From Patescibacteria group bacterium (GTDB lineage: Bacteria; Patescibacteriota; Patescibacteriia; UBA9934; GWF2-40-263), in NCBI GenBank assembly GCA_041661745.1, contig JBAZTR010000002.1, positions 132,368 through 196,367 on the forward strand: a stretch of DNA of 64,000 nt. The letters are read 5' to 3'. The notes beneath the pieces are model-generated. The model did no database searches and had not been told where the DNA came from. It worked only from the letters and a program-made list of their open reading frames with translations. This document shows positions 59,216-60,760 of this stretch, one piece after another (position 1 is the first letter of the stretch; each line of letters opens with the position of its first letter). The translations under genes were made by a program, and so were the position numbers.

Positions 59216-59396
59216 CTTTGAGAAAAATATGATTTACCAAATTACCTACATCGCTTCGGCGATCGGAACACTTGGGTTCATGCTCGGATTGAGCTAACCC
59301 AAAAAGCACGAGAGAAAAATCTCACGCGTGCTTCATGATTTATAACCTCACCCCACCCTCTCCTTAGTAAGGAGAGGGAGTTACAGATCACGAAGC
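59216..59396 (+). repeat. 180-bp leader repeat, copy A: mini-ORF + hairpins
   Basis: About 90% identical to 60578-60760. Contains the 22-aa ORF at 59229-59297, an imperfect hairpin AGCACGAGAG..CTCACGCGTGCT, and a perfect hairpin CCCTCTCCTTAGTAAGGAGAGGG. Confidence 0.85.
59229..59297 (+). CDS. 22-aa hydrophobic mini-ORF (MIYQITYIASAIGTLGFMLGLS), leader peptide or type-I-toxin-like
   Basis: Conserved in both copies of the leader repeat (paralog MIYYFVYVASAIGTLGVLLGLS). The differences are largely conservative hydrophobic substitutions. Confidence 0.4.
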   Translation: MIYQITYIASAIGTLGFMLGLS

Positions 59397-59466
59397 ATTC
59401 GAGGAGATCCACCTTCGCCGAGCTTCGGCGGACAAGGAGTCCACGATTGCGAATCCTGTCCATGTT

Positions 59467-59498
59467 GGACGGGTCCGGCAGGCATGCCGTCCTTTTTT
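59467..59498 (+). terminator. Intrinsic terminator / attenuator immediately upstream of the ribosome-binding site and ATG of the first GC-rich gene
   Basis: GGACGGGTCCGGCAGGCATGCCGTCC hairpin, then TTTTTT, then GGAGGAAAACATG. Confidence 0.55.
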
Positions 59499-59508
59499 GG
59501 AGGAAAAC

Positions 59509-60372
59509 ATGCGCTTCGTCATCAGCAGCAATCCCGTCGTCCTCGCCGCCGCCCTGCAGGACAAGCCGTCCGCAACGGTCGAGGCCGAGTACGGCAACGC
59601 CGTGGTCGAGGGCTCTGTCCTCACCATGGCGCACCACGGCCCCCGCGCCGGCCAGCCCGCGCCCTGTGCCTACGAGAACGGCTGCGCCGACGGGGTCGAG
59701 GTGGTGGGCCTGTCCCACTTCGATCTCGACACCCTCGGCGGGTGCGCGGCCATCCTCGGCCGCAAGGTCGAGGCCCCGACCTTCTGGCAGCTCGCCGAGT
59801 TCATCGACCTCAACGGGGCTCACAAGCTCAACGAGGGGATCGAGAAGACCGGCGCGACGCCCGACGACGTGGCCAAGCTCTTCGCCTTCTGGGCGTGGTC
59901 GCGCAACTTCCGCGTCTTCCCGAACCGCGACGGCAGCGTCAGCGACGTCACCGACAAGGTCATCGAGGGCTGCAACGTCCTCGACAAGATCATGAACGGC
60001 GATGCCGACCTGATGAAGGCCGGAACGGTCTACAAGGACGCGGAAGGGAAACTCAACGCCGACTCGTTCGTGGAGGCGAAGGACGGCGTGGTGGTGCGGG
60101 TCTCGTCCCAGTTCACCAACCACCTGTACAACACCCCCGACGGGAAGGCCCACGCCGCGGTCGTGGCCTACACCACGACGACCGGCGCAGTCACGGTCAG
60201 CTTCGCGGACTCCCCCAAGGGCAAGAACGCCCGCCAGATCGTGCAGGAGCTCTGGGGTGAGCTCGCCGGTGGCCACGCCGGAATCGCCGGCAGCCCCCGC
60301 GACCGTCGCATGTCCCTCATCGACCTCACCGCGGCGGTCGAGGCCCTCCGCGCCGCGCTCGCCGGCAAGTAG
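59509..60372 (+). CDS. Hypothetical protein (about 68% GC, foreign composition)
   Basis: ORF 59497..60372 with ATG at 59509 behind a GGAGG ribosome-binding site. Strong GC3 bias. No motif recognised. Confidence 0.55.
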   Translation: MRFVISSNPVVLAAALQDKPSATVEAEYGNAVVEGSVLTMAHHGPRAGQPAPCAYENGCADGVEVVGLSHFDLDTLGGCAAILGRKVEAPTFWQLAEFIDLNGAHKLNEGIEKTGATPDDVAKLFAFWAWSRNFRVFPNRDGSVSDVTDKVIEGCNVLDKIMNGDADLMKAGTVYKDAEGKLNADSFVEAKDGVVVRVSSQFTNHLYNTPDGKAHAAVVAYTTTTGAVTVSFADSPKGKNARQIVQELWGELAGGHAGIAGSPRDRRMSLIDLTAAVEALRAALAGK

Positions 60373-60577
60373 TCACATAGGTTTCTTTCCCAATTTCTTC
60401 TCCTTAGGGCGAAAAAAGTAAATTGGCCATGTGTGCTTTCGAACTCGAGCACGCGTGGAACCGTAGAGTTCAAAAGGAAAGTCGTCTCCCTTTAAGTAGA
60501 CGGCAAAAACAATGCACTCGATTGGCGGATTCACTCCCCGCCTCTTCGACTAAACTCTTGAATTTTCTTTCGAGGGC

Positions 60578-60760
60578 TTTGAGAAGAAAAAATATGATTT
60601 ACTATTTTGTCTACGTCGCTTCGGCGATCGGTACGTTGGGAGTTTTGCTCGGATTGAGCTAACTCAAAAAGCACGAGAGAAAAATCTCACGTGTGCTTCA
60701 TGATTTATAACCTCACCCCGCCCTCCCCTTAGTAAGGAGAGGGAGTTACAAATCATGAAG
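60578..60760 (+). repeat. 180-bp leader repeat, copy B
   Basis: See copy A. Contains mini-ORF 60594-60662 and the same two hairpins. Confidence 0.85.
60594..60662 (+). CDS. 22-aa hydrophobic mini-ORF (MIYYFVYVASAIGTLGVLLGLS)
   Basis: Paralog of 59229-59297. Confidence 0.4.
   Translation: MIYYFVYVASAIGTLGVLLGLS

Follow-up and report, generated by a model that had tools for sequence, protein, structure and literature searches.

A unit of about 180 bp occurs twice in direct orientation within the stretch of Patescibacteria (candidate phyla radiation) chromosome that was analysed here (64,000 nucleotides of contig JBAZTR010000002.1, about 45% GC; hereafter the window), and its two copies bracket exactly one GC-rich gene, encoding a DHH-like phosphoesterase. 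Each copy carries a 22-codon open reading frame (ORF) followed by stem-loops, and its substitution pattern indicates that this ORF is a genuine conserved coding sequence. In the explanation that we favour, to which we give an even chance of being correct, the unit would represent a paralogous pair of a tiny protein-coding gene with stem-loops 3' of it, and would form one block of an AT-rich, structured spacer scaffold in a chromosomal island that starts at a TrmB gene and a strong promoter. The tiny gene would then act on its own and not as a sensor for the gene downstream, which is the role of leader-peptide attenuator that a first-pass annotation of this DNA had considered for it. The parts of the unit are listed below; here and throughout, statements about transcription (promoters, terminators) are predictions from sequence scans, L011 denotes a shorter locus and L092 an island extended to 21 kb, both from Candidatus Uhrbacteria UBA12432.

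59216-59401, + strand: module copy A (repeat finder, BLAST, segment comparison)
59229-59297, + strand: tiny gene A, encoding MIYQITYIASAIGTLGFMLGLS and a stop (ORF list; coding signature against copy B and the Uhrbacteria homologue)
59305-59332: hairpin 1 of copy A, AGCACGAGAG...CTCACGCGTGCT, starting 8 nt past the ORF stop; -13.7 kcal/mol
59330-59396: hairpin 2 of copy A (fold), with a 17-bp outer stem, a 9-nt asymmetric loop and a perfect 10-bp inner stem at 59356-59378
59335-59367 and 60700-60732, + strand: second tiny ORF, MIYNLTPPSP and a stop (tblastn match MIYNLT, sequence reading)
60578-60766, + strand: module copy B (repeat finder, BLAST, segment comparison)
60594-60662, + strand: tiny gene B, encoding MIYYFVYVASAIGTLGVLLGLS and a stop (ORF list; coding signature)
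60670-60697: hairpin 1 of copy B, AGCACGAGAG...CTCACGCGTGCT
60670-60761: hairpins 1 and 2 of copy B, the inner stem with one mismatch and the outer stem nearly perfect
L011 2182-2250 (the same as L092 8193-8261): tiny ORF of Uhrbacteria (pattern scan)

The repeat finder paired 59223-59401 with 60588-60766 (179 nt, 88% identity) as the sole long repeat family of its kind in the window, and BLAST extended the match to 59216-59396 and 60577-60761 at 87% identity, slightly below the figure of about 90% given in the first-pass annotation. The segment before the ORF (CTTTGAGAA...ATATG) is 100% identical between the copies apart from a 4-nt indel, the ORF itself 80%, the hairpin-1 region 94% and the hairpin-2 region 91%. 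With GC contents of 0.446 and 0.434 against 0.454 for the rest of the window, the modules do have the native composition that had been ascribed to them, at 44-45% rather than about 40%, and the genes that follow them are indeed GC-rich (0.688 for the DHH-like gene after copy A and 0.706 for the Csx3 gene after copy B). When folded as a whole, the module differed from shuffled sequences with z = -5.7 on either strand. The two-copy arrangement recurs in ENA assembly ERZ27249449 and in Logan assembly SRR6484324, which derive from other data sets, and because it is identical in three independent assemblies an assembly duplication or chimera can be excluded; the similar GC mosaic of other genomes also speaks against a chimeric assembly. 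A genome-wide search for further copies had been recommended: in the 74 kb covered (the window plus 10 kb beyond, of a 217-kb contig) the module was found only twice, and a homologue of its ORF was found in another genome.

This homologue, MIYQLTYIASAIGTLGLMLGLG, was the single match of the back-translated YIASAIGTLG pattern in the species-genome collection and belongs to Candidatus Uhrbacteria UBA12432. ORF A and the Uhrbacteria ORF differ at 14 nucleotides (5/0/9 at codon positions 1, 2 and 3), by which seven codons are changed synonymously and three conservatively (I/L, F/L, S/G); by simple binomial reasoning, the probability of seeing no second-position change among 14 is about 0.003. ORF B differs from the Uhrbacteria ORF by 10/1/12 over the same positions. 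The codon-aligned antisense frame is open in both window copies and contains two stops in the Uhrbacteria copy, which identifies the + strand frame as the constrained one and led us to reject an antisense ORF across the tiny gene. The context directly upstream of the ORF, CTTTGAGAAAAA(A)TATG, is kept in all three copies, the Uhrbacteria form being ACTTTGAGAAAAAATATG. At 22 codons, the ORF is too short for gene callers.

The encoded peptide has 22 residues and no charged side chain, and places small residues at A9-G13-G16-G20 (A-x3-G-x2-G-x3-G); from its sequence, we infer a glycine-spaced single helix that should insert in the membrane. Its C-termini (...MLGLS in copy A, ...LLGLS in copy B and ...MLGLG in Uhrbacteria) have no polar, charged or bulky cluster. 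The peptides match no Pfam, NCBIfam or PHROG family, and the three peptides in concatenated form, the single peptide being shorter than the tool's 40-residue minimum, found no match in a set of 5.8 billion proteins. Searches for the tiny ORF by tblastn, regular expression and nhmmer in about 100 loci around relatives of the DHH-like cargo gene and of a 319-residue cargo protein recovered only the window and the Uhrbacteria strain, and no module was present on the short contigs of the closest DHH relatives (L102 and L103).

Hairpin 1 is called as a terminator on the minus strand in both copies (59327-59306 in copy A), where its tail reads TTTTTGGG or TTTTTGAG, whereas on the + strand its tail is merely UUCAUGAUUUAU and the terminator scan found no + strand U-tract terminator after either hairpin of the window modules. 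The long stem of hairpin 2, GCTTCATGATTTATAAC...GTTACA(G/A)ATCA(C/T)GAAGC, gives the element a fold energy of -31.7 kcal/mol in copy A and -28.9 kcal/mol in copy B. Five nucleotides (GUGCU) belong both to its 5' arm and to the 3' arm of hairpin 1, and hairpin 2 is complete only once the tail of hairpin 1 has been transcribed. The perfect 10-bp hairpin of the first-pass annotation is found as such in copy A (CCCTCTCCTTagtAAGGAGAGGG) only, copy B having one mismatch (CCCTCCCCTT), and in both it is just the tip of hairpin 2. The Shine-Dalgarno-like run GGAGAGGGAG reported inside it is likewise present, yet it is followed by ATG in copy B and ACG in copy A and hence serves no conserved start. Stem differences between the copies are confined to one G-C to G-U change in hairpin 1, and to one U-A to U-G change and one mismatch in hairpin 2, too little variation for the A/B changes to decide the strand or the function of the hairpins. 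The second tiny ORF, MIYNLTPPSP, sits inside hairpin 2; over its first 18 nt it is similar to the beginning of the 22-codon ORF, both A/B differences within it are synonymous, and its proline-rich end could act as a ribosome staller.

More than 16 kb of the Uhrbacteria island contain the tiny ORF only once, and the hairpins downstream of it are entirely different from those of the window modules: a 9-bp hairpin is followed by AAAAACCAATAG-TTTTTGA-CTAATGGTTTTT, which constitutes a terminator of its own, and then by a convergent low-GC gene. The ORF is thus independent there of any downstream GC-rich gene. Nor does the module behave as a dedicated leader for such genes, as had been suggested, since it adjoins only two of the seven GC-rich genes of the window island on their upstream side, leaving the other five cargo genes without it, and directly precedes none in Uhrbacteria. 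The related suggestion, that this genome fits acquired genes with a native cassette, is contradicted by the AT-rich scaffold itself: together with the ORF and about 200 nt upstream of it, it is shared at 72-83% DNA identity with Uhrbacteria, a member of another order, so that the module belongs to the island and was not supplied by this host. The island that contains the modules comprises the following features.

57416-58228, minus strand: TrmB-family regulator gene (Pfam TrmB, E = 2.7e-14), divergent from the island
58373-59508, + strand: leader/spacer S0, ORF-poor, about 1.1 kb, 45% GC, with no Rfam match and with blocks shared with Uhrbacteria
58431-58459, + strand: sigma-70-like promoter, TTGACA-17-TACTAT with TG (promoter scan, 10/12 matches)
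59209-59224, + strand: junction motif TTGAGAACTTTGAGAA, inside which the A/B repeat begins
59509-60372, + strand: cargo 1, a stand-alone DHH/DHHA1 (NrnA/Pde2/GdpP-like) phosphoesterase gene (structure model, Foldseek)
60380-60426, + strand: post-stop element, GGTTTCTTTCC then a hairpin, following the DHH gene
60993-61295, + strand: Csx3 gene (Pfam and NCBIfam Cas_csx3)
61372-62019, + strand: P-loop protein gene, with Csx3 a split Csx3-AAA pair (PADLOC Csx3-AAA models match both halves)
62243-63451, + strand: MoxR-type AAA ATPase gene (Pfam bpMoxR, AAA_5, AAA_lid_8)
From 63455, + strand: gene for a VWA protein, partner of MoxR, cut by the window end (64000)

Including two further cargo proteins of unknown function, which lie in L001 (the window's own island, reaching past the window end), there are seven GC-rich ORFs, all on the + strand and downstream of the 58431 promoter, and, as judged from the gene table of L001 and its GC profile, the island continues for about 4.3 kb past the window. 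The DHH-like protein was modelled by AlphaFold with a pLDDT (predicted local distance difference test) of 96, and its top Foldseek matches were NrnA/Pde2, the TM1595 phosphodiesterase, GdpP and RecJ; its family has 283 relatives, and Patescibacteria groups were the only organisms named among the 120 listed. GC content at third codon positions (GC3) is 0.95 in the DHH-like gene, 0.94 in the Csx3 gene and 0.71-0.95 over the cargo, against 0.37-0.49 in the host genes on both sides. Such values are not peculiar to this island: cargo keeps a GC3 of 0.7-0.95 in genomes of 37-47% GC (window 59509-64000, L001 to 15700, L003, L004, L005, L017, L021, L025, L059 and L075), and the DHH-like family retains 60-71% GC in many low-GC contigs though its proteins are only 54-86% identical, with no amelioration visible. 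No obvious high-GC donor of the cargo was found.

The Uhrbacteria island L092 is laid out on the same plan, with a large protein and TrmB on the minus strand, a TTGACA-17-TATTAT promoter, a 1.2-kb leader (L092 4816-6053) and then, on the + strand throughout, at least 10 GC-rich ORFs with a GC3 of 0.76-0.95, between which lie spacers of 35-57% GC. Its low-GC genes (a PIN toxin-antitoxin pair and coiled-coil proteins) lie on the minus strand; within one minus-strand coiled-coil gene (L092 11573-11734) there are 42-nt tandem repeats whose copy number varies between samples that are otherwise 99% identical. Synteny of TrmB and the island extends to five genomes, homologous TrmB genes standing beside L003 (a Magasanikbacteria island), L092, L097 and L098. 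The spacers of the window and Uhrbacteria share collinear blocks at 72-83% DNA identity, although the corresponding TrmB proteins are only 34% identical. Window positions 58376-58553, 58770-58938 and 59020-59224 match L092 4918-5092, 5448-5616 and 7176-7380 at 72-75%, and the shared blocks correspond to the promoter and leader start, a 170-nt block, the tiny ORF, and a 200-nt block that directly precedes this ORF. The promoter and about 100 nt of the leader are also kept in L098, L059 and L103. From these matches the S0 leader (58373-59508) is a candidate for a long structured leader RNA or a regulatory region. We considered and rejected a peptide (...LLPRFE and a stop) as the basis of the conserved block at 59062-59157, since conservation extends upstream beyond an in-frame stop and the frame survives only by way of compensating indels. 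Within the same leader, at 58978-59012, clustered TTCGTA repeats stand around ATTCGTACGAAT, a perfect 12-bp palindrome with GGGG and CCCC at its sides; the arrangement, not conserved in Uhrbacteria, looks like an operator in its sequence. The TrmB gene always has a large protein of 724-1025 residues in front of it (window 55105-57465, L092 974-4051, L003 2441-5077, L097 4912-7086); the N-terminal 550 residues of this protein match nothing, and its C-terminus is an S-adenosylmethionine-dependent methyltransferase in the window and a GNAT acetyltransferase in the other three.

Three further elements recur in these islands. The junction motif reads TTGAGAACTTTGAGAA or TCGAAGATTGAGA. As TTGAGAACTTTGAGAA it stands at L011 1354 and 2161, on either side of an inserted PIN toxin-antitoxin pair, and degenerate forms lie at window 60570 and L092 11229. 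The inserted pair, in which a PIN-domain (VapC-like) toxin gene is combined with its partner, is encoded on the minus strand and lies directly upstream of the Uhrbacteria tiny ORF and between two 45-nt direct repeats that end in CTTTGAGAA (L011 1325-2176, the same as L092 7330-8190); at another Uhrbacteria spacer, a reverse-strand gene is attached at the junction motif. The spacer after the DHH gene (60373-60590) matches the L092 spacer after an unrelated GC-rich gene and ends in the TTTGAGAAGAAAAA junction, where different units attach. The post-stop element, a GGTTT(T)CTTTC motif with a hairpin, is also found just after two Uhrbacteria GC-rich ORFs (L011 595-641 and 4968-5050), with a related motif three times in L092 (12831, 18204 and 19728); its stem covaries (CCAATTT/AAATTGG, CCGATTTT/AAAATCGG, CTCACTTTTC/GAAAAGTGA), and as it has no U-tract it is not an ordinary terminator. 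An ACTCGA-hairpin-TCTTCGA element was likewise seen, on reading the sequence, to recur in the spacers. Other islands possess repeated AT-rich modules of their own before GC-rich ORFs: L092 has a 143-nt module in three copies, and a 58-nt leader in four copies with a Shine-Dalgarno sequence in the hairpin loop, while L003 has a module of 47-59 nt in three copies. The Uhrbacteria island also holds tandem unit duplications with divergence. The DNA homology that the DHH gene shares with L003, L004 and L005 is lost no more than about 35 nt from either end of the ORF, the flanks being unrelated, and this restriction of homology to the ORF makes a cassette-like organization plausible.

Our favoured account traces the two copies, as their most likely origin, to the insertion or duplication of a cassette through recombination between spacer modules, either of Campbell type or by unequal crossing-over. 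This appears to be the simplest history because the spacer behind the DHH gene is homologous to a post-cargo spacer of Uhrbacteria and ends in the junction motif; the direct repeats could in principle loop the DHH cassette out again. After the duplication the ORF would have diverged (80% identity), and the hairpin part (91-94%) would have been kept by constraint or gene conversion. Hairpin 1, next to the stop codon, would be the end of the transcript or a stabilizer of it. For the peptide, our guess is a membrane-active micro-protein, toxin-like or with a stabilizing or modulating role, in view of its size and hydrophobicity, the missing Shine-Dalgarno sequence, the duplication and the location in an island.

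Several observations weigh against this account. Neither ORF A nor ORF B, which the first-pass annotation correctly described as lacking a ribosome-binding site, shows Shine-Dalgarno complementarity to the 16S tail of this genome (...CACCUCCUUUC). About 90 other loci with relatives of the cargo genes do not have the tiny ORF, which is thus no general component of such islands, and the coding argument draws on substitution patterns in only three sequences from two lineages. The 3' non-coding part of the module is more conserved between copies (91-94%) than the ORF (80%), which may mean that selection favours the hairpins and the ORF is a passenger, or that gene conversion has acted there. An uncharged peptide is unusual among characterized toxins. 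Finally, no population variant without the DHH cassette was found: when strains lacking the cassette were sought through the exact Csx3 and MoxR proteins, all contigs recovered kept the same arrangement, and the available strains, 99% identical, showed no excision or insertion polymorphism.

The alternative that deserves most attention, possible though we hold it only tentatively, is that the module is a cassette boundary, i.e. a recombination and expression adaptor of a gene-cassette array, attC-like or resembling the promoter/stem-loop (PeSL) cassettes, with the tiny ORF as a passenger or accessory. On this view the other lineage-specific spacer modules would have the same role, and cargo ORFs of foreign composition would be linked to standard AT-rich, hairpin-rich flanks, at or between which recombination would insert, duplicate or excise them. 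The direct repeats bracket exactly one cargo gene of strongly deviant GC3, every cargo gene points away from a single strong promoter, repeated modules peculiar to each island stand before cargo ORFs, DHH homology is confined to the ORF, and there are the covarying post-stop hairpin and the recurrent junction motif; these features would fit the capture-boundary idea of the first-pass annotation. The reverse-oriented PIN toxin-antitoxin pair between 45-nt direct repeats is also reminiscent of chromosomal-integron cassettes. PeSL modules lie between accessory ORFs in the hyperplastic regions of T4-type phages, where recombination between neighbouring copies inserts, deletes and circularizes ORFs (PMC2839356, PMC4122927), and the module resembles them in that stem-loop direct repeats bracket one accessory gene in a plastic region. 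It differs in having no conserved sigma-70 promoter (the only + strand site, a 9/12 match at 60579-60608, is in copy B, with none in copy A), in holding a conserved coding ORF, in being chromosomal in Patescibacteria and not in a phage, and in that no mini-circle or shuffling event was observed. Likenesses to integrons include co-oriented cargo of atypical composition behind one promoter (TTGACA-17-TA(C/T)TAT; seven ORFs in the window and 10 in L092), structured lineage-specific repeats whose structure is kept more than their sequence, the embedded toxin-antitoxin pair, and homology confined to the ORF. However, there is no IntI beside the array and there are no R''/R' cores: read against RYYYAAC...GTTRRRY, the outer stem of hairpin 2 is TTATAAC...GTTACAG/GTTACAA, in which RRR is A, C, A. 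Repeats lie both before the ORFs (up to 300 nt away) and behind them, and the spacers, at 0.2-1.2 kb, are far longer than attC. Nor was a dedicated recombinase found. The first-pass annotation had recommended looking for one associated with the cassettes, and the nearest gene, a tyrosine recombinase at 54148-55101, is of XerC/XerD type (254 and 245 bits); we rejected it as an integron integrase as it scores 145 bits with TIGR02249 against a cut-off of 265. It is absent from the other islands. No recombinase adjoins the islands of L003, L092, L097 and L098, and the large neighbour protein showed only GNAT or methyltransferase domains in a Pfam and PDB profile search. The coding constraint on the tiny ORF would, moreover, be needless in a pure DNA site.

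A role as a type I toxin-antitoxin-like locus, in which the tiny ORF would encode a membrane toxin held down by RNA, seems to us unlikely. Type I loci such as ibs/sib, ldr/rdl and zorO/orzO are repeated intergenic modules of about 150-500 bp with ORFs of about 18-35 codons that encode hydrophobic single-helix peptides from structured, weakly translated mRNAs (PMC2887945, PMC3919570). The module recalls them in being repeated, in its unannotated short hydrophobic ORF and in the extension of copy similarity past the ORF, and the ORF has the size and hydrophobicity of such genes (fewer than 70 codons, a predicted transmembrane stretch); a 22-residue hydrophobic, intergenic peptide with a nearby duplicate is what the search logic for new type I toxins looks for (PMC2887945), and the accessory-island location, with the Uhrbacteria copy beside a VapC-type toxin-antitoxin pair, and the ORF's want of a Shine-Dalgarno sequence would fit. 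The duplication, too, would be typical of loci of this kind. The candidate RNA would be a minus-strand transcript running through hairpin 2 and stopping, or reading through, at the hairpin 1 terminator, which is canonical only on that strand and is preceded and overlapped by hairpin 2 in antiterminator-like fashion; a promoter-like site on the minus strand lies downstream of copy B, at 60972-60943. No minus-strand promoter, however, is conserved in the module or present downstream of copy A (scan and sequence reading), and no antisense or divergent small-RNA gene was identifiable for the module. The copies are split by an unrelated 0.9-kb gene rather than sharing one intergenic region, the downstream hairpins of Uhrbacteria are entirely different, the peptide resembles no known toxin family in Pfam, NCBIfam or PHROG, and it has no polar, charged or aromatic C-terminal cluster (a criterion of PMC2887945). 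Counted by hand (I/V/L/F/C/M/A), the best 15 residues include 10 hydrophobic ones in copy B and nine in copy A and Uhrbacteria, borderline against the rule of at least 10 (PMC2887945), which is reached by copy B alone. More improbable still is the leader-peptide attenuator, in which translation of the ORF would remodel hairpins 1 and 2 and so control the downstream GC-rich gene. A ribosome terminating 8 nt from hairpin 1 would melt its 5' arm, the two hairpins are partly exclusive through the shared GUGCU, and both copies lie upstream of a same-strand gene, probably on one long transcript from the 58431 promoter; the short ORF, overlapping stem-loops and Shine-Dalgarno-like run within a hairpin are all shared with the attenuators of trp/his operons and erm/cat. 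But there is neither a + strand terminator U-tract nor a conserved start after GGAGAGGGAG, the peptide has no run of regulatory codons, and the next start lies 212 nt (A) or 331 nt (B) away across unrelated sequence. Linkage to a downstream gene is not conserved: the genes after A and B (DHH, Csx3) are unrelated, five other cargo genes have no module, and the Uhrbacteria orthologue has its own terminator and faces a convergent gene. As a short, intergenic, hairpin-rich and repeated unit, the module might also be taken for a non-autonomous transposable element (a miniature inverted-repeat transposable element (MITE), a repetitive extragenic palindromic (REP) element or Correia-like) or for an assembly artefact, and this we regard as very improbable. 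The module ends (59216/59401, 60578/60766) have no terminal inverted repeats and no target-site duplications, no transposase is nearby, and exact-pattern scans with the hairpin region gave no match in 185,579 species genomes, JGI metagenomes and IMG/VR, nor did BLAST of the module against plasmid and phage collections, or the back-translated peptide pattern and the spacer motif in IMG/VR. In Rfam, nothing reached the gathering threshold in the module region, and a permissive search of 58400-62300 gave chance-level matches only (E >= 0.25). The module is thus not the end of an insertion sequence or MITE, which the first-pass annotation had named as grounds for abandoning its proposal, and the identical arrangement in three assemblies and the coding signature of the ORF point the same way.

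A broader reading of the island, which we find doubtful, is that it is an integrase-less gene-cassette platform of ABY1-class Patescibacteria, previously undescribed, with the module as one of its adaptors. In such a platform a promoter under TrmB control and a long conserved leader would be followed by an array in which ORFs of foreign appearance, with a GC3 of up to 0.95, are fitted, precisely at the ORF ends, to standard AT-rich structured flanks: the post-stop hairpin, the ACTCGA-hairpin-TCTTCGA element, the TTGAGAA junction and lineage-specific leader modules, among them the one with the 22-codon gene. Its cassettes would be shuffled by recombination at their flanks, and the lasting GC-richness of the cargo within AT-rich genomes would be a property that the system maintains and not a sign of recent transfer.

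Elsewhere, the window contains six tRNA genes, an RNase P RNA and a 16S rRNA gene. Behind the last of these come tRNA-Ile and tRNA-Phe (26689-28642) and, in the remaining 36 kb, no 23S rRNA gene, which makes this an unlinked rRNA operon. At 20031-20252 stand two tandem copies, 99% identical, of a 111-nt unit; the repeat begins within the 3' part of tRNA-Arg(CCG) (19966-20042, minus strand) and may be an integration scar. Two terminator-like hairpins, AAAAACCAACCGGACAAACGGTTGGTTTTT, 97% identical, stand on both sides of a 195-residue ORF at 48729-49316 (48635-48672 and 49314-49351).

A literature search on integrons, cassettes or GC-rich islands in these phyla found nothing relevant, and this type of island appears undescribed in the literature searched. 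We rate the tiny gene as a new small-protein family and the island as a new variant of cassette-like accessory regions. The former adds a conserved 22-residue micro-protein, invisible to gene callers, to the almost unexplored small-protein complement of candidate-phyla-radiation bacteria. The latter, present beside TrmB in at least five Patescibacteria genomes, sets co-oriented accessory genes of extreme GC3 in conserved, hairpin-rich spacers of about 45% GC, and its cargo includes an NrnA-like phosphoesterase and the conflict-system genes split Csx3-AAA and MoxR-VWA. If the spacers act at the RNA level, they would form a new set of structured leader or processing elements; if they are cassette boundaries, they would represent a new route of gene capture in organisms thought to be minimal and static, and would bear on how cassettes come by standard flanks.

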